Below are positions 13,244 to 18,990 of a stretch of DNA of 49,846 nucleotides, in pieces; position 1 is the first letter of the stretch, and each line of letters starts with the position of its first letter. Both the position numbers and the translations under genes were made by a program. This stretch comes from a virus. The stretch lies in the IMG/VR virus record IMGVR_UViG_3300045988_134547, positions 1 through 49,846 of that record; one strand, 5' to 3'. The notes under the pieces were generated by a model, which worked only from the letters and a program-made list of their open reading frames with translations, was not told where the DNA came from and searched no databases.

Positions 13244-13414
13244 TTATTTGCGACAGCAGCACTTCTTCTCGTCAAAATATTTTCTCTCTGCTACTTCGCC
13301 CTGTTTTCCAATATTAAAACTATCTATCGGACGGTGATAGCCCATAACTCTTGTCCAGATTTCACACTTCGTTCTCTCGCTGTTTGGGATACCGAGTTTT
13401 TCAAGTTCAGTCAT
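13244..13414 (-). CDS. Stand-alone NrdD-type glycyl-radical-motif mini-protein (56 aa; below the ORF-track cutoff)
   Basis: Read by hand: MTELEKLGIPNSERTKCEIWTRVMGYHRPIDSFNIGKQGEVAERKYFDEKKCCCRK. It has an AAGGAG SD and an ATGA overlap with the Rz1 stop. RVMGY...FN.GKQ.EV..R matches the C-terminus of class III ribonucleotide reductase. Confidence 0.6.
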   Translation of the reverse strand: MTELEKLGIPNSERTKCEIWTRVMGYHRPIDSFNIGKQGEVAERKYFDEKKCCCRK

Positions 13415-13674
13415 TTTCCTTTCTCCTTATCTGAGTTGGATGGCGCATCTTTCAATGATTCTTCTATCGCTGACTGCGCGCGCTGCACATTCTGCAAGAG
13501 TTTTTGAAGAGAACTCAAGTGCGCGTCTAAATCGACCACACTCTCCAAGCTCCCTCTGTAGCTTTCGCTGTATCGCGGCGTCTCGCTCGCGCACCCTGAG
13601 AGCAGAATCGTTAAGGACACCAATAGACTTTTCCAACTGTGCAATTTCTTTATCCTTTCTATGTAACGTTTCAA
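13411..13674 (-). CDS. Rz1: o-spanin (Rz1-like lipoprotein), overlapping Rz in another frame
   Basis: Signal plus lipobox SLLVSLTILLSGC. It starts inside Rz and ends 16 nt beyond it. Confidence 0.75.
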   Translation of the reverse strand: MKRYIERIKKLHSWKSLLVSLTILLSGCASETPRYSESYRGSLESVVDLDAHLSSLQKLLQNVQRAQSAIEESLKDAPSNSDKEKGK

Positions 13675-13798
13675 TCTGCTGAGCCAGTAGCCGCTCCCGC
13701 TCCTGCGTCCAGCGCAACTCTGTTTCCTGCTGGCCGAAGTGATAACCCAGGAGACTGGAGAACATCACGGCGGCAATAATCAAAATTACTCGGATCAT
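13427..13798 (-). CDS. Rz: i-spanin (Rz-like)
   Basis: N-terminal TM (IRVILIIAAVMFSSLLGY) followed by a coiled coil; immediately downstream of the endolysin. Confidence 0.75.
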   Translation of the reverse strand: MIRVILIIAAVMFSSLLGYHFGQQETELRWTQERERLLAQQIETLHRKDKEIAQLEKSIGVLNDSALRVRERDAAIQRKLQRELGECGRFRRALEFSSKTLAECAARAVSDRRIIERCAIQLR

Positions 13799-14259
13799 TT
13801 TCTGAAAAATAGTTCTAGTTCTGCGTAACGTCTGCGCCTCAGGCCGTCTTCAAACTTGGAGCCAGGATTCACATACTTCGGCCACCATTCACGGATTCCG
13901 TCCTCATTCTCTGCGTTAATCATTTTGAAGAGTGTGTACCTGCGACACTTCGTAATGCCGAAGTTGAAAACGAAAGACATCAGGGCAATAAATTGATTCT
14001 CGGTAACGGGTACGTGAACGAGCGCTGCCAGCTCCTCTTGTTTATGAATGAGGTCTTTGTCCAGTAGGTCGTAAGCCTCGGCCCGCGTAATGTGCTCTCC
14101 AGGATGTACATCTTTGGTGTGTCCGAACCCGATGGTCCAGACCCCAGCGGGGCATTTGTAGGATTCAAGGGCCGGTCCGCCTTTGGGACCTTGCTCAAAC
14201 TCAGATATGAACTGAGTTGCTAATTCAGGCGGGTACAACAAAATATCTTGCTTTCTCAT
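13795..14259 (-). CDS. GH24 (T4/lambda-type) endolysin
   Basis: FISEFEQG...ALESYKCPAGVWTIGFGHT matches the E-8-D/C-5-T lysozyme catalytic pattern. Confidence 0.9.
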   Translation of the reverse strand: MRKQDILLYPPELATQFISEFEQGPKGGPALESYKCPAGVWTIGFGHTKDVHPGEHITRAEAYDLLDKDLIHKQEELAALVHVPVTENQFIALMSFVFNFGITKCRRYTLFKMINAENEDGIREWWPKYVNPGSKFEDGLRRRRYAELELFFRK

Positions 14260-14570
14260 TTAGGCTCCTTCTTGATACCGTGCAACCTCTGTACTTCAGA
14301 CTTCAAGGTCTCCAGGTCTTGCTGAATTTTCGTTAGCTGTTTGATGCTCTCGGTATTTGATGTCGCTCGGCGGTTAAGCTCGTTGATCTGAAGCCGCTGG
14401 AGCGCGGTTTCGTTCTCCAGACTGTTGATGCGGTCTTGCTGGGACACGATTGTGTACTGATTCAACTGAGCGTTGGTCAGGTAGCCAGCGATGTAAAACG
14501 CGAAAAATAGAATGAGCTTTATTAGCCCTGCAAAAACTGAGCGCATACTAATTGCCATGGTGCTCTCCAT
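14256..14570 (-). CDS. TM plus coiled-coil lysis-cassette protein (second i-spanin-like protein or holin modulator)
   Basis: N-terminal TM (VFAGLIKLILFFAFYIAGYL) followed by heptad-like QRLQINELNRR...LETLKSEVQRL. It lies between the holin and the endolysin. Confidence 0.5.
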   Translation of the reverse strand: MESTMAISMRSVFAGLIKLILFFAFYIAGYLTNAQLNQYTIVSQQDRINSLENETALQRLQINELNRRATSNTESIKQLTKIQQDLETLKSEVQRLHGIKKEPK

Positions 14571-14892
14571 TGTTGTTATGAACAGTGAGTTTCAATTTGC
14601 CCGTGATGACCCCGTATAAGGTGTTCATGATCTTCAGGCCAAAATATGCAGAAACCCCGCTACACGCTCCAATCCATTCCCAAGAGAGTTTGGAGGTGCG
14701 GAGGATCAGATAGACAATGAAGCCAGCGGCACATGAGGTAACAAACTCAATGAACCAGCGCGGAAAATTCCAGCCCCGTTCTCCTCTCACGTACGGCATA
14801 GCCGAGCCCGAGGCGGCGCAGATAAGAATAAGCGCGAACACTATTAGGTTCACCGTGCTGGCAAACTCGCTGAGGCTGAAATCTGTTTCCAT
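14548..14892 (-). CDS. Holin (three predicted TM segments)
   Basis: The hydrophobic segments are VNLIVFALILICAASGSAM, FIEFVTSCAAGFIVYLIL and WIGACSGVSAYFGLKIM. It is the first gene of the lysis cassette. The ATG at 14892 is preferred over the GTG at 14946. Confidence 0.65.
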   Translation of the reverse strand: METDFSLSEFASTVNLIVFALILICAASGSAMPYVRGERGWNFPRWFIEFVTSCAAGFIVYLILRTSKLSWEWIGACSGVSAYFGLKIMNTLYGVITGKLKLTVHNNNGEHHGN

Positions 14893-14951
14893 GTCTATCT
14901 CTCTTTTTAGATATGGTATGAGCGCTTTTTCTTTCAATGCGCACACCTGAC

Positions 14952-14975
14952 GAAAAGCCCCTCACATGGAGGGGC
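14952..14975 (-). terminator. Intrinsic terminator GCCCCTC-catgt-GAGGGGC-TTTT (minus strand)
   Basis: Same palindromic stem as the plus-strand terminators at 4555 and 9455. It separates the cassette array from the holin. Confidence 0.6.
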
Positions 14976-14982
14976 GGAGCGG

Positions 14983-15375
14983 TTAGGAGGTTTGGCCTCC
15001 GACTGCGGGGATGAAATATACGGTTGAGTTGTCTGTATTTCCGTCTAACACCGCGGCCACATATTTGCAACTATCCCCTTTTTTGACGGGCATGTATACA
15101 TCAGGCCATGCTAGGCGAACTTGTCCTGAAGTCAGTGCAACCTGTTGTCGTGAACGGGGACCGTTCCCTACCTCTATGTAACTAGTATTACTTGCTCCGT
15201 CGATGCAGACATATCCGGAACACGGCGCTGTATACGTACCATCAAGAGTTTCCTTGCCTTGTGCGATGACTATTCGATCAGCCCATTTTTTCGGCATTCC
15301 TTGTTGAGCAATGAACTCCGTGTCACTTCTCTTCACGAACTTGGAGAGGAGGAGCGCTAAAACTGATTTCAGCAT
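14983..15375 (-). CDS. Fibre-distal cassette protein, family member 1 of 6
   Basis: Contains MLKSVLALLLSKFVKRSD..., YTAPCSGYV, VKKGD and VYFIP. It shares the N-terminal helix and three motifs with the five upstream paralogues. Confidence 0.65.
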   Translation of the reverse strand: MLKSVLALLLSKFVKRSDTEFIAQQGMPKKWADRIVIAQGKETLDGTYTAPCSGYVCIDGASNTSYIEVGNGPRSRQQVALTSGQVRLAWPDVYMPVKKGDSCKYVAAVLDGNTDNSTVYFIPAVGGQTS

Positions 15376-16136
15376 GACGCACATCCAAACATCTGATCAA
15401 TTGTTCCCCTCGACTTTGTATATTCGAAGATAGGCAGTAGAGAACTGATTTGATCGCCCAATTGCGTAGGTAAGTTCTTGACCTTTTTTAGCGTAAGCCC
15501 AGATCGAAAGATTCCCATTCGCAGATGGTCCGAGATTGATGAGATTGAACCCTCCAATATCGGCAAACCAAACTCCATAACCTCTGAGGTTGACAACCCC
15601 CGTGTATGGCATGGTGAATGGGTGACTTTCTCCATCTGCAATAACAGGTAGTTCAGAAGAGCTTTGAATAGAAATTGCCGACTGCTCCGCCACCCACTCC
15701 CGCTTGTTCTGTAAGAATTTCTCCGCAAAGAGCTGCACAAGTTGCTTAAGCATATTGCACCTCCTTGCAGAAGAGCGTTCTTAAGAGCTGATACCCCCCC
15801 CCAGACCAAAGCATAGAACGTCGCAGAAGTATCTGCGGCAGTCTCAAAAATTATTTTTTTACCCTTAGCAATAGGAACAAAGAGTTTGGCTGCTCGTCCC
15901 TCACGAGGGTAGCTACTAGTCTGTAAAACCTGCCCATACACGTTGATACCGTTGTTTGTTACTGTTGTTATGAATTCCAAATATCCATCGTTGGGCGCAA
16001 CGTATTCGTTGCGGCCACCGGTTACAGATACGCTAGTGCTAACGCTTTTATCTGGTAAGGCCAAGGATGCAACTAAAGCGGATTCCTGTTTGCTGTAAAA
16101 CTTCGATAATAGGAGGCTCAATAAACTTTTCAGCAT
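15369..16136 (-). CDS. Fibre-distal cassette protein, member 3 of 6; as sequenced it reads through a 9-G tract into the +1 frame of member 2 (255-aa ORF)
   Basis: SD AGGAGG. The family-like part ends at ...ATFYALVWGG, at the tract. With 10 G it would end as WGGGISS-stop. Confidence 0.6.
   Translation of the reverse strand: MLKSLLSLLLSKFYSKQESALVASLALPDKSVSTSVSVTGGRNEYVAPNDGYLEFITTVTNNGINVYGQVLQTSSYPREGRAAKLFVPIAKGKKIIFETAADTSATFYALVWGGVSALKNALLQGGAICLSNLCSSLRRNSYRTSGSGWRSSRQFLFKALLNYLLLQMEKVTHSPCHTRGLSTSEVMEFGLPILEGSISSISDHLRMGIFRSGLTLKKVKNLPTQLGDQISSLLPIFEYTKSRGTIDQMFGCASC
15397..15753 (-). CDS. Fibre-distal cassette protein, family member 2 of 6
   Basis: Strong SD AAGGAGGTG. Its N-terminus MLKQLVQLFAEKFLQNKREWVAEQSA is closest to member 4. 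The gene is entirely overlapped by a stop-free +1 frame. Confidence 0.7.
   Translation of the reverse strand: MLKQLVQLFAEKFLQNKREWVAEQSAISIQSSSELPVIADGESHPFTMPYTGVVNLRGYGVWFADIGGFNLINLGPSANGNLSIWAYAKKGQELTYAIGRSNQFSTAYLRIYKVEGNN
15794..15802 (-). repeat. Poly-G tract (9 G on the coding strand) at the 3' end of cassette 3
   Basis: CCCCCCCCC on the plus strand. Confidence 0.95.
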
Positions 16137-16157
16137 AATGCGCCTCCTGTCAAAGGA

Positions 16158-16529
16158 TTAAAAGTCTGAACTTGCTTTGTAGAACCAAAGAGAATAATCG
16201 GTTGTACTTCCGCCACGGCACAAGAACTTAATCTGTGTCCCTTTTTTAACGTAACAACAGATTCCAGCTCCCGCAGTGTTTCCGTTAAGTATGGAAGCAA
16301 GTGCCATCTGCCCGTTCTCGACTTGGATTTCAAGAGCTGAGACTGTAGTTGAATTGCACCGAGAAGTCGCCCAGCCGTTGCACGGTGCGGTGTAGGTAAA
16401 GAAATCCGTGGTGCTTGTGCAAGGAATATTAATGCCCTGATGGATAATAGGAGCTGATTGTTCTGAAACCCAAGATTTTTTGCTCTTAAGAAAACTTTCG
16501 GCAAATAGTTGAACGAGGGCCTTAAGCAT
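16158..16529 (-). CDS. Fibre-distal cassette protein, family member 4 of 6
   Basis: SD GGAGGG. Contains MLKALVQLFAESFLKSKKSWVSEQSA, YTAPCNGW, VKKGT and WFYKA. The gene is entirely overlapped by the stop-free +1 frame 16130-16591. Confidence 0.7.
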   Translation of the reverse strand: MLKALVQLFAESFLKSKKSWVSEQSAPIIHQGINIPCTSTTDFFTYTAPCNGWATSRCNSTTVSALEIQVENGQMALASILNGNTAGAGICCYVKKGTQIKFLCRGGSTTDYSLWFYKASSDF

Positions 16530-16553
16530 GGCAGAGCCCTCCGAACAAGAATA

Positions 16554-16907
16554 TTATCCCCCCCCGAATGATTTGTAGAATTTAACCTCAATATCAGTCA
16601 AGTTATAAAGAGATATAGAGACGGTCTCTCCTTTGCTCACGGGAGCGGTCACGGCTTGACCCCAATCTTTAACAGATTGGAAAGTTCTTAGAAAATAATT
16701 CTCTCCGTTGCTGCTAATTCCAATAGCACTGCCGCCATTTGCTTCAGATTTGCCCTCTACAGTTATGAACCCGTCTTCGGGCGCAGTGTATATCTGTTCC
16801 CCTGTGAAGATACTTGTAGAGGAAGACGTGTTGCGCAAAGCGGAATGCGCCGCCTCGCTCGGAGTAGTTCGGCTATCGAGTAGCCGCTGAATAAGTTGTT
16901 TTAGCAT
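16554..16907 (-). CDS. Fibre-distal cassette protein, family member 5 of 6; ends in an 8-G tract (…KSFGGG-stop)
   Basis: SD AAGGAG. Contains MLKQLIQRLL..., YTAPEDGF, VSKGE and KFYKSF. Confidence 0.7.
   Translation of the reverse strand: MLKQLIQRLLDSRTTPSEAAHSALRNTSSSTSIFTGEQIYTAPEDGFITVEGKSEANGGSAIGISSNGENYFLRTFQSVKDWGQAVTAPVSKGETVSISLYNLTDIEVKFYKSFGGG
16558..16565 (-). repeat. Poly-G tract (8 G on the coding strand) at the 3' end of cassette 5
   Basis: CCCCCCCC on the plus strand, directly before the TAA stop. Confidence 0.95.
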
Positions 16908-16942
16908 TTAAACTCCTTGCCGAGCCTAAATGCTCGGCGTTA

Positions 16943-17357
16943 TTAGATTGGGCAGAAATAGCAATAAACCATTCCGGCACTCATGCCATAGTGGTATTCA
17001 ACTTGCTGTCCTTTTCTGATGTACATGTATGCTCCAAGATTGGAGCCGGGTTGTTGAAGTCTTGTTAGGGTCGGCCATTTATTTTGGGCTTTATTGCGGA
17101 TACCAACAAATATCGCTTGCGTTGCGTAAATCCAAGCAACCCCATCCGCTGGAGCCACATAAATAAAAGAGTCTGTGATAAAAGCGTCTGTGTCCGTAGC
17201 TGTATGGACCAAGATATTTCCTGAAATGAAATCAGAAATGCCTATCTCTGACGACCTTTTCCCATATATAGTTAAACTACCCCCCCCCACAGCCGCCGCT
17301 CACTGATCTGCGAGGAACGAATAAGCTACACAACAGACTTGCTAATTGTTTAAACAT
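16943..17357 (-). CDS. Fibre-distal cassette protein, member 6 of 6; interrupted by a 9-G tract after codon ~26 (frame-OFF as sequenced)
   Basis: The ATG at 17357 has an AGGAGG SD and gives the family-type N-terminus MFKQLASLLCSLFVPRRSVSGGCGGG-stop. The rest of the protein (GSLTIYGK...YVAPADGV...IRKGQ...) continues in the frame reached with 8 or 11 G. Confidence 0.6.
17280..17288 (-). repeat. Poly-G tract (9 G on the coding strand) near the 5' end of cassette 6
   Basis: CCCCCCCCC on the plus strand. Confidence 0.95.
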
Positions 17358-17964
17358 TGAAAAAACCTCCTTGTCTCATAGAGTTGCGGGCATCAACTGC
17401 CTGCTCCAATTCGTAGGCCAAAGCTTCCGGAAATGCCGGATAGTCGATAAAAGGAAAGCTAGGCTTGTCCGGAAGATCTTTAAGTGCTTGGCGATAATTC
17501 AATAACGCCTGTCGATCTTCTTCAGTTAATTGAGCTCTCTTCGCCTTGGCGGCTGACTGCACAGTAATGTCCGGGAGCTGAACATACTTATCAGTGTCAG
17601 AGATTCGAGCATTGCGCTCTCCTCTAACTTCTTGTTCGTAACGCTCTTGGACAAATTTGTCATCCAGTTCAGGAAGTTCTGTTGAAAGGTAGTAATTACC
17701 GTCAGCACTGTGGAAATAGCCTTGAGGACTGGGCTCAAGCTTCCAATATTTGATGATTACTCCATCATCTCGCTTAAATCTTTCGGATAGCTTGTAATGG
17801 CTCTCTGCGTACGCCTCATCTTTGGGATCTGTAAACGCGTGCTGACTCGGTGCATTGGAGGAAACAACAATTCTTCCGTCCGCGTCCTTCAATGAATATT
17901 TTGCAAGAGGCCGACCCATAGCCTTGGCCAACATCTCTTGCCGGACTTCTTCAAGTGTTTTCAT
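17350..17964 (-). CDS. Tail fibre assembly chaperone (Tfa-like)
   Basis: The C-terminal part ...ARISDTDKYVQLPDITV...EEDRQALLNYRQALKDLPDKPSFPFIDYPAFPE is the typical Tfa pattern. It follows the fibre genes. Confidence 0.8.
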   Translation of the reverse strand: MKTLEEVRQEMLAKAMGRPLAKYSLKDADGRIVVSSNAPSQHAFTDPKDEAYAESHYKLSERFKRDDGVIIKYWKLEPSPQGYFHSADGNYYLSTELPELDDKFVQERYEQEVRGERNARISDTDKYVQLPDITVQSAAKAKRAQLTEEDRQALLNYRQALKDLPDKPSFPFIDYPAFPEALAYELEQAVDARNSMRQGGFFNV

Positions 17965-17976
17965 GCTTTGTCCTTT

Positions 17977-18990
17977 TTAAGAGTTTCCTGATTCAGAGTT
18001 GCTACTGGTTTGCGTGTTCTTGGCATCGTCAATTTGTTGCTGTGTACCTCCGTTCTCGAGAATCAGTTCTTCGAGAATCGGGCAGAGGTAGTCATCGACA
18101 TGACCATTGAAATAGGTTTCAGCCCAAGATTCCGCACCGGCTGTAAAGTTGATGTTCGACCGTGCTGTGGTTTGTTGCGTCTCTGTAAGGGCTTGAGCCG
18201 CCTCATATGAGACACTCGGCGTTAAATCCGTGTAGTCAGCAGATAAAAGAGCTGTCCCGGCAGCTGTGTCCACAGACGCAATCGTGAACATTCTTCCATC
18301 AGTTCCGACTACGGTGTCACCAGCTTTAATGTTGCCTTGAGGCTTCAAATCAGAGATTTGAATAGTGGCCGAAACTTGGAGCGCTTGATTGATTACTCTG
18401 ACAGCATAGGCACTTGCAGCCGCCTCAAGAGCTTTCGTTTCGGCAGTCTGCGCGGCGGTTTGGGCAGTTGTTGCCGCCGTTTGTGCGGTTTCGGCATTGC
18501 TCTGGGCAGTTTCTGCCGCCTGTTGCGCCGCCTGTGCAGTTTGCAGAGATTGAGCCGCGTTGTTAGCCGCAGTTTGAGCACTAGCAGCTGAACCTTGAGC
18601 AGCAGTCTGAGCCGCGGAAGCCGAAGTTTGTGCCGAGTTCGCTGTTGTAACTGCCACCGTGGACGCATCGACCGCACTCTTAGATTGAGCAATAGCAGTC
18701 TGTATATCTGCATCCCAATCATCGACTACTTGCTTCAAAGTCTCAACTTTTTCATTTGCAGCATTCGCTTCCGCCAATGCATTTGAAGAAATTGAATTTG
18801 CCGTCTGTGCTGTTTGCCGAGCTTCCTTAGCGATCGATAGAGCCTCTTCGGAATTGTCAGAGGCTTGGTCTGCGTACGCGCCAACATCGTTAATAGCGTC
18901 CTCCGTCTGCTGAAGAACTTCGGGGCCGCTGATAACTCCGGTTCCTGTCGGCGTGTAATGAAATTGGAATTTCGAATCTGCCATGATCAA
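17977..18990 (-). CDS. Tail fibre protein (Ala/Gln/Thr-rich shaft)
   Basis: Long AQTAAQ-type repeats, as in P2 H / Mu S-type fibres. Confidence 0.8.
   Translation of the reverse strand: MIMADSKFQFHYTPTGTGVISGPEVLQQTEDAINDVGAYADQASDNSEEALSIAKEARQTAQTANSISSNALAEANAANEKVETLKQVVDDWDADIQTAIAQSKSAVDASTVAVTTANSAQTSASAAQTAAQGSAASAQTAANNAAQSLQTAQAAQQAAETAQSNAETAQTAATTAQTAAQTAETKALEAAASAYAVRVINQALQVSATIQISDLKPQGNIKAGDTVVGTDGRMFTIASVDTAAGTALLSADYTDLTPSVSYEAAQALTETQQTTARSNINFTAGAESWAETYFNGHVDDYLCPILEELILENGGTQQQIDDAKNTQTSSNSESGNS

Follow-up and report, generated by a model that had tools for sequence, protein, structure and literature searches.

A candidate translational relay, routed by polyG tracts among alternative cassettes, at the tail fiber locus of a Parasutterella prophage

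Phages can obtain alternative fiber tips by changing their DNA, as in the invertible G/C segments of Mu and P1, the diversity-generating retroelement of Bordetella phage BPP-1 and the T2-type gp38 adhesins. In the lic1 locus of Haemophilus, the number of repeats places alternative ATG codons in frame, and the result is a multilevel phase variation of translation. The contingency loci of Campylobacter phages and of T2/T4, for their part, are said to involve on/off frameshifts within one gene. Hypermutable polyG tracts have been described in structural and receptor-binding genes of Campylobacter phages (Sorensen et al. 2021, Cell Rep 35:109214, as cited in PMC10877375), and T2/T4 have been described as having contingency loci too (Gomez et al. 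2025, preprint, PMC12633550). Translational coupling is known from such cases as the trp and atp operons and from the coat and lysis genes of MS2, a case in which a masked start becomes active when ribosomes terminate nearby; the accepted models are RNA unfolding and/or reinitiation, overlaps of -8, -4 and -1 are the enriched spacings of coupled open reading frames (ORFs), and coupling drops 3- to 10-fold by about +40 nt (PMC12548453). Here, we analyze a stretch of 49,846 nt (IMG/VR record IMGVR_UViG_3300045988_134547, positions 1-49,846; hereafter the window) from a myovirus-like prophage of about 50 kb, in whose late region a tail fiber gene and a Tfa-type chaperone gene are followed by an array of six paralogous cassettes of about 118-130 aa. 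On balance, we think it probable that this Parasutterella prophage has at this locus a phase-variable relay of translation, in which polyG tracts would route ribosomes among alternative cassettes.

All the relevant genes of the window are on the minus strand, in the order tail fiber gene, chaperone, six cassettes (numbered 6 to 1 in the direction of transcription), terminator-like hairpin and lysis genes (table 1). A reading of the DNA letters alone, which we call the original prediction, had claimed that cassettes 2 and 4 are each completely covered by a stop-free +1 frame that is entered from the upstream cassette through a slippage-prone polyG tract, and that this openness is hard to ascribe to chance. 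The ORF list does contain these two frames, at 15369-16136 (255 aa) and 16130-16591 (153 aa); there is not a single +1 stop in cassettes 2 and 4, as against 9, 7, 7, and 4 in cassettes 1, 3, 5, and 6. Both open frames lie directly behind a polyG tract and run across the initiation site of the cassette they cover. Permutation had been proposed as a check of the chance hypothesis, and its answer depends on the model: resampling of codons with the amino acids preserved gave probabilities of a stop-free frame of 0.0027 for cassette 2 and 0.013 for cassette 4, whereas the more conservative synonymous shuffle within each gene gave only 0.05 and 0.13. Elsewhere in the window, in 54 genes that total 13,088 codons, the +1 frame stays open for at most 113 codons, compared with about 144 for each of the two runs here. 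Taken by itself, the window is thus suggestive of something other than chance.

The only runs of seven or more G or C residues in the window are the three polyG tracts of the array, and the two that precede cassettes 4 and 2 have a defined outcome in each of the three frames. At its present length of G8, tract 2 leads cassette 5 to a stop at 16556-16554, 24 nt before the ATG of cassette 4; with G9 the frame ends on the TAA at 16524-16522, within the ATGCTTAA of cassette 4; and with G7 or G10, the lengths that had been predicted, cassette 4 is crossed and the frame ends at 16132-16130, on the TGA inside the ATGCTGA with which cassette 3 begins. Tract 3 behaves similarly. Its G10 state ends at a TAA at 15783-15781, its G8 state on the TAA at 15748-15746, within the ATGCTTAA of cassette 2, and its G9 state, the one in force, passes from cassette 3 across cassette 2 to the TGA at 15371-15369 in the ATGCTGA of cassette 1. 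In the window, therefore, the short state applies to cassette 5 and the read-through state to cassette 3.

To place this arrangement in a wider context, 60 related IMG/VR loci were retrieved with the chaperone protein, which is 77-99% identical in all of them but one (L060, 62%). Protein matches point to Parasutterella as the host, and a genome scan with an alignment of the open-type cassettes found only two species-level genomes, those of P. excrementihominis YIT 11859 and of one related metagenome-assembled genome. The former, a cultured type strain (NZ_GL883695.1), has a complete array, in which four tracts are G9 and the read-through ORFs are long. A hidden Markov model (HMM) of the cassette located 328 copies, of which 209 were unique and full length, and among the latter the number of +1 stops is bimodal. 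Almost all of those beginning ATGCTTAAG, ATGCTTAAA, or ATGTCGCTT are fully open in the +1 frame, and all of those beginning ATGCTA, ATGCTG, or ATGTTA followed by AA contain +1 stops, with a mean of about 11. We refer to the open subfamily as B and to the remaining cassettes as A. The N-terminal motif QLFAE, which was defined independently, coincides with this division: 72 of its 74 carriers are open, and 133 of the 135 noncarriers have more than two stops. Just two of the 76 unique B sequences have a +1 stop, one each (L023, 7450-7815; L040, 8242-8616), possibly the result of a recent mutation or of an assembly error.

More than 50 loci share one array order. At the head is a cassette whose polyG tract is 5'; behind it, A and B alternate strictly (A-B-A-B-A), the number of B units ranging from one to four. 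PolyG tracts also mark the 3' end of each A that has a B after it and are missing from the final A. The cultured isolate genome has the same layout. The cassettes themselves are very diverse: in spite of the closeness of the chaperones, there are 32 families of A and 21 of B that share less than 50% aa identity. Their content is highly mosaic across the collection (L001-L062; arrays at about 600-4000 nt 3' of the Tfa match), and DNA-level conservation extends over roughly the first 60-80 nt of each cassette, which comprise the Shine-Dalgarno sequence (SD) and the N-terminal helix; these conserved 5' ends could be recombination points for cassette shuffling.

When the length of the tract was varied in silico at the 118 A-to-B junctions, the three frames ended before the B SD, on the B start, or on the next A start in 115 of them. 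The first outcome is a stop 24-39 nt upstream of the B ATG; the second is a TAA at B ATG+5 (ATGCTTAA, an overlap of 8 nt) or at ATG+8 in variants that begin MSLK; in the third, the frame crosses B and stops on the start of the A that follows, at ATG+4 (ATGCTGA or ATGCTAA, an overlap of 7 nt). Read-through corresponds to G9 at 97 of the 118 junctions. In the assemblies as they stand, 74 junctions are in the read-through state, 21 end on the B start, 21 are short, and 2 do otherwise. Since read-through is the commonest state, long products in which an A cassette carries a tail are very probably made, and to this extent the long isoforms that the original prediction attributed to cassettes 3 and 5 are upheld. 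Contigs with identical 60-nt flanks have tracts of 6-11 residues, and 15 of 27 such groups vary, which is consistent with slipped-strand hypermutability, although some of the variation could be assembly noise. These tracts hence have the usual features of contingency loci, namely homopolymers of at least 7 residues at coding regions, length polymorphism, and a product that depends on the length. As in the Campylobacter phage and T2/T4 loci, homopolymer slippage would give a heritable and reversible diversity; unlike them, each tract here has three defined outcomes, one of which is the transit of a whole gene to the start of another. The resemblance to lic1 lies in a repeat length that, modulo 3, gives three translational outcomes; but in lic1 it is the start of one gene that changes, whereas here it is the site of termination and hence the downstream gene that would be served.

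The conservation of the open frame of B is what removes chance from consideration, and its pattern indicates what is being conserved. Not one of the 21 B families has a +1 stop, where 4.6-7.4 would be expected (probability of none, 0-0.003 per family), so that homologs, far from closing the frame, keep it open. Within B, an NTA codon (Leu, Ile, or Val) stands before a codon starting with A or G in 1 case of 990, and an NTG codon before one starting with A in 1 of 513, as against 16-20% for the same codons before C or T. An internal Met followed by an A-starting codon, found 45 times in 185 in A, is never found in B (0/57). Divergence, measured on the independent edges of minimum spanning trees, gave a frame-0 ratio of nonsynonymous to synonymous change (pN/pS) of 0.19 in B and 0.18 in A. 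The suppression of synonymous variation that an overprinted frame should impose, and that had been suggested as a test, was sought in B both on the tree edges and in matched adjacent A/B pairs and was not found: pS in frame 0 is 0.112 in B and 0.116 in A, and in the matched pairs that of B (0.060) is not below that of A (0.032). Nor was purifying selection on the +1 peptide found in B, whose +1 pN/pS of 1.32 equals the 1.33 of A, where this frame is closed. By these measures, selection purges only the contexts that create stops and does not act for a peptide, and the +1 frame of B is apparently held open as a conduit for ribosomes. A pseudogene status for B, with the long ORF as the true gene, was also considered and is ruled out by the frame-0 pN/pS of 0.19, a confidently predicted fold, and the presence of its own SD; cassette 4, in particular, is on the strength of its HMM match and paralogy a real gene in frame 0. 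The locus thus shares with overprinted genes a long ORF that lies wholly inside another gene in the +1 register, is longer than chance allows, and is open across relatives. It differs from them in having neither purifying selection on the second peptide nor suppressed synonymous change in the host gene, and we read it as a frame kept open rather than as a second protein-coding gene of the usual kind.

The positions at which the frames end are equally constrained. The second codon of B, a Leu, is CTT in 73 of 73 cases, which is what places a TAA over the start. A +1 stop would be avoided just as well by CTC, and in the bodies of B genes the ratio of CTT to CTC before A-starting codons is 86:57. 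The starts of A have the form NT[AG]-A in 92 of 94 cases. Judging from these codon choices, the placement of stops on starts is itself selected. The same device is found at the head of the array, where the Tfa stop (TAA, 17352-17350), as read from the sequence, overlaps the first-cassette start by 8 nt (ATGTTTAA), and the corresponding motif, ATG[CT]TTAA, places the chaperone stop over the first-cassette start in 53 related loci. The 8-nt overlap therefore appears to be this phage's normal means of coupling.

Every class of cassette has a strong SD core, and in ensemble folding this SD is largely paired with the early coding sequence of its own gene, with a probability of 0.96 in A cassettes that follow a B and of 0.80 in B, compared with 0.54-0.55 in synonymously recoded controls. 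The pairing exceeds the control mean in 61 of 61 and 60 of 63 sequences, respectively. In the window, the SD of cassette 4 (GGAGGGC, 16542-16536) pairs with GCCCTC (16520-16515) and that of cassette 3 (AGGAGGC, 16148-16142) with GCCTCCT (16117-16111), and a long hairpin at about 15774-15720 covers the SD region of cassette 2. For the A that opens the relay (cassette 5 here), the masking sequence lies instead upstream, as an intergenic arm just after the stop of the first cassette; in 26 unique homologous first-A starts the SD is paired upstream with a probability of 0.62 and the ATG with one of 0.68, and the pairing is retained across differing sequence variants. Two mutually exclusive hairpins can in fact be drawn between cassettes 6 and 5 (16903-16945), GCCGAGC/GCTCGGC or AGCATTTAGGCTC/GAGTTTAAATGCT. 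The latter is the minimum free energy (MFE) structure and sequesters the ATG of cassette 5, and a ribosome ending at the double stop of cassette 6 (TAATAA) would occupy its 5' arm. At cassette 1 the SD is degenerate in the window (15376-15386; GGATGTG, compared with GGAGGTG in almost all relatives), and this cassette may in this phage depend even more on ribosomes arriving through the preceding conduit. The evidence for masking consists of pairing probabilities for each sequence, compared with synonymous recoding; RNAalifold gave no consensus structure for 63 B or 60 A starts, because the partner of the SD shifts in register and codon between families. The junctions accordingly have two marks of coupled pairs, a stop that overlaps the downstream start (115 of 118) and a sequestered downstream ribosome-binding site. 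The likeness to known coupling thus includes overlaps of 7-8 nt and SDs predicted to be sequestered in hairpins, and the -8 spacing of NTGNNTGA is one of the three enriched among coupled genes. What differs is that the partner would not be fixed but chosen by a mutable homopolymer, one of the options needing a conduit of about 140 codons.

The relay that we propose would work as follows. The chaperone gene would hand ribosomes to the first cassette, and the latter, when its 5' tract is in frame, would pass them on to the first A, whose start is masked. In the window this tract (codons 24-26) leaves cassette 6 out of frame, with a TAG at 17279-17277, and a length of G8 or G11 would bring its start into frame with the body ORF (17290-16943) and give a cassette of about 137 aa; homologs in related loci occur in both conditions (in frame in L022, L029, and L038). 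Each A has its hypermutable tract just past the folded domain, and the length of the tract would set the frame and hence the site at which the ribosome stops. A stop 24-39 nt before the B start would couple only weakly to B; a stop on the B start would reproduce the arrangement of the chaperone and first cassette; and the third frame would carry the ribosome through the B conduit to the next A start. Because the SDs are locked in hairpins, the site of arrival and termination should decide which downstream cassette initiates, and it is from these sites that we infer which cassettes are on and off in each state. Thanks to the conduit, frameshifted ribosomes would never be dropped in the middle of the operon. 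The tail of about 140 aa that is added to A would be a by-product and may well inactivate that A.

Several considerations weigh against this scheme. Coupling is deduced from the sequence alone, and the strong SD core of every cassette makes some independent initiation likely. There is no single consensus hairpin, so that masking rests on the folding of individual sequences, and in published reporter work overlaps of -7/-8 are less efficient than one of -4 (PMC12548453). Transit of ribosomes over the B start could either silence B or activate it. The modal state, moreover, in which all tracts are G9, would leave the first cassette off and the A cassettes with junk tails, which would be an odd default if these proteins were essential. 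Finally, a receptor-binding role of the cassettes is argued from position, hypervariability, and weak fold similarities (TM 0.3-0.5).

The open frames also admit other explanations. That they reflect chance, codon usage, or errors in homopolymer assembly might be argued from the shuffle in the window, with its values of 0.05 and 0.13, and from the error-prone homopolymer lengths of metagenome assemblies; but the comparison of relatives makes chance untenable, and we give this view practically no credence, since 21 divergent families are all open, the depletion is context specific, the association with the QLFAE motif is nearly perfect, and the same architecture, which does not depend on any particular tract length, is present in an isolate genome. 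Another explanation is the proposal with which the original prediction had concluded, that the frames encode functional, overprinted C-terminal extensions of cassettes 3 and 5. They are indeed open, conserved, and in the modal state, and their openness spans all of B and not its start alone. The extensions, however, show no sign of constraint on either their amino acids or the synonymous sites beneath them, and nothing but stop-creating contexts is depleted. Their composition is that of a generic off-frame translation (Leu 17.5%, Ser 10.6%, and Arg 9.0%, vs. 15.2%, 8.8%, and 8.9% in off-frame A), just as a caveat to that prediction about Leu/Ser/Arg-rich, off-frame-like sequences had feared, and the tails differ wholly between the 21 B families. 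With stops purged in the absence of peptide constraint, a functional overprinted extension is rejected, while the purging itself indicates that ribosomes do use this frame; at the level of sequence this reading is largely refuted, and we consider it unlikely.

A slightly smaller probability still attaches to a nonheritable entry into the frames, in which slippage of RNA polymerase or ribosomal frameshifting on the G run would yield all three frames from a single genome at fixed ratios and so set a stoichiometry. Runs of G8-G9 are potentially slippery and each of the three frames does have a defined and conserved fate, but it is the length of the tract in the DNA that varies, from 6 to 11, between contigs identical in their flanks. 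The main rival is a purely anti-polar function of the open frame, namely to provide an off state in which, when A is frameshifted and the B start occluded, the B region is still translated and the downstream cassettes escape Rho-dependent polarity or mRNA decay, with no routing and no coupling. It accounts well for the purging of stops in the absence of peptide constraint, for the SD that each cassette possesses, and for the terminator that comes only after the last one. It leaves unexplained the exact ATG+4 and ATG+5 positions of the stops at 115 of 118 junctions, the invariant choice of the TAA-making CTT over CTC in B, and the masking of SDs beyond that of synonymous recoding. We regard it as improbable in its pure form, though the least so of these alternatives, and it overlaps with the relay rather than excluding it.

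Table 1. Features of the cassette array and its surroundings in the window
Feature	Position	Strand	Remarks
Tail fiber gene	17977-18990	minus	
Tfa-like tail fiber assembly chaperone	17350-17964	minus	Pfam PF16778, E=2e-11; PHROG 4912 tail fiber assembly, E=6e-33
First cassette (cassette 6)	16943-17357	minus	ATG at 17357; from sequence, ORF list, and paralogy
PolyG tract 1 (G9), 5'-proximal on/off switch of the first cassette	17280-17288	minus	
Hairpin in which the cassette 5 SD and ATG pair with intergenic sequence just 3' of the cassette 6 stop	16903-16939	minus	MFE fold
Cassette 5 (A type)	16554-16907	minus	117 aa in the present G8 state, ends FGGG*
PolyG tract 2 (G8), candidate three-way frame switch	16558-16565	minus	
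Stop-free conduit 1 (+1 frame of cassette 4)	16130-16557	minus	From polyG tract 2 to the TGA in the ATGCTGA of cassette 3
Cassette 4 (B type)	16158-16529	minus	123 aa, N-terminus MLKALVQLFAESF; HMM match, paralogy
Cassette 3 (A type), domain	15780-16136	minus	In the present G9 state read to 15369, 255-aa product
PolyG tract 3 (G9), candidate three-way frame switch	15794-15802	minus	
Stop-free conduit 2 (+1 frame of cassette 2)	15369-15793	minus	From polyG tract 3 to the TGA in the ATGCTGA of cassette 1
Cassette 2 (B type)	15397-15753	minus	118 aa; orthologs at 56-97% identity
Cassette 1 (terminal A type)	14983-15375	minus	130 aa, no polyG; ATGCTGA start receives the conduit 2 stop
Intrinsic-terminator-like hairpin followed by TTTT	14957-14975	minus	Closes the array

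The cassette proteins share an N-terminal M-L-K, a YTAPxDG-like motif, and a KKG motif. Scans of all six against Pfam and PHROGs found no family, and a profile search of PDB sequences gave nothing below E=0.15. The AlphaFold2 (AF2) model of cassette 2 (mean predicted local distance difference test, pLDDT, 87.8) consists of an N-terminal helix (residues 2-22) and an eight-strand beta-sandwich, for which Foldseek searches of PDB and BFVD returned only weak matches (TM 0.3-0.54) to CBM6/35, C1q-like phage proteins, lambda J, and jelly rolls; because of this weakness we do not call the cassettes adhesins on structural grounds. One relative of cassette 2 (P0035) has an internal tandem duplication of 9 residues in the beta-sandwich (GYGVWFTDI twice), and the fold therefore tolerates an insertion there. 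The array is directly 3' of the fiber and Tfa genes and is hypervariable between close relatives; from this position and variability, together with the weak fold similarity, the cassettes are probably alternative fiber-tip or receptor-binding modules. Like the alternative tips of Mu/P1, BPP-1, and gp38, they are small, highly variable modules 3' of fiber and chaperone genes, their adhesin role being putative; in contrast to Mu/P1 and BPP-1, the choice among them would be made by frame at translation and not by inversion or mutagenesis. No invertase, inverted repeats, or reverse transcriptase were seen in the array, no search aimed at them having been made. Directly 3' of the terminator is a putative lysis module, assigned by eye (13427-14946, minus strand), with a membrane-protein-like ORF (14548-14946), an ORF of 104 aa (14256-14570), a lysozyme-like ORF (13795-14259), and two ORFs (13427-13798 and 13411-13674) that overlap in the manner of Rz/Rz1.

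Among 50,697 phage records searched by megablast, none matched the locus, and our literature search found no description of this locus, of polyG tracts in Parasutterella phages, or of any system that pairs a stop-free conduit the length of a gene with a termination site chosen by a homopolymer. We know of no described equivalent of a polyG-switched ribosome relay. PolyG contingency tracts in phages and translational coupling are both already known, and there is a substantial chance that their combination here constitutes a distinct regulatory architecture. In its most developed form, the scheme would be a heritable homopolymer frame selector whose three positions correspond to three points of termination and reinitiation, one of them reached through a whole-gene stop-free conduit; chained two to four times and headed by an on/off tract, it would allow a prophage to make virions with combinatorial fiber tips without recombinases, reverse transcriptases, or polar effects. 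We regard this fuller version as slightly less likely than not.

What selection maintains in at least 21 diverged families is an off-frame of 120-130 codons that is free of stops and yet bears no constraint on the peptide it encodes. The length and conservation of an overlapping ORF do not, therefore, establish that a second protein is encoded, which is a caution for the prediction of overlapping genes. The model can be tested directly, because the locus is present in a cultured strain, P. excrementihominis YIT 11859. It suggests a compact route, free of recombinases, by which phages could diversify their tail modules or select among alternative ones through the union of slipped-strand phase variation with translational coupling. 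If true, the relay would offer a natural design for multi-output translational switches and would represent a new mechanism of host-range bet-hedging in the phages of the gut.

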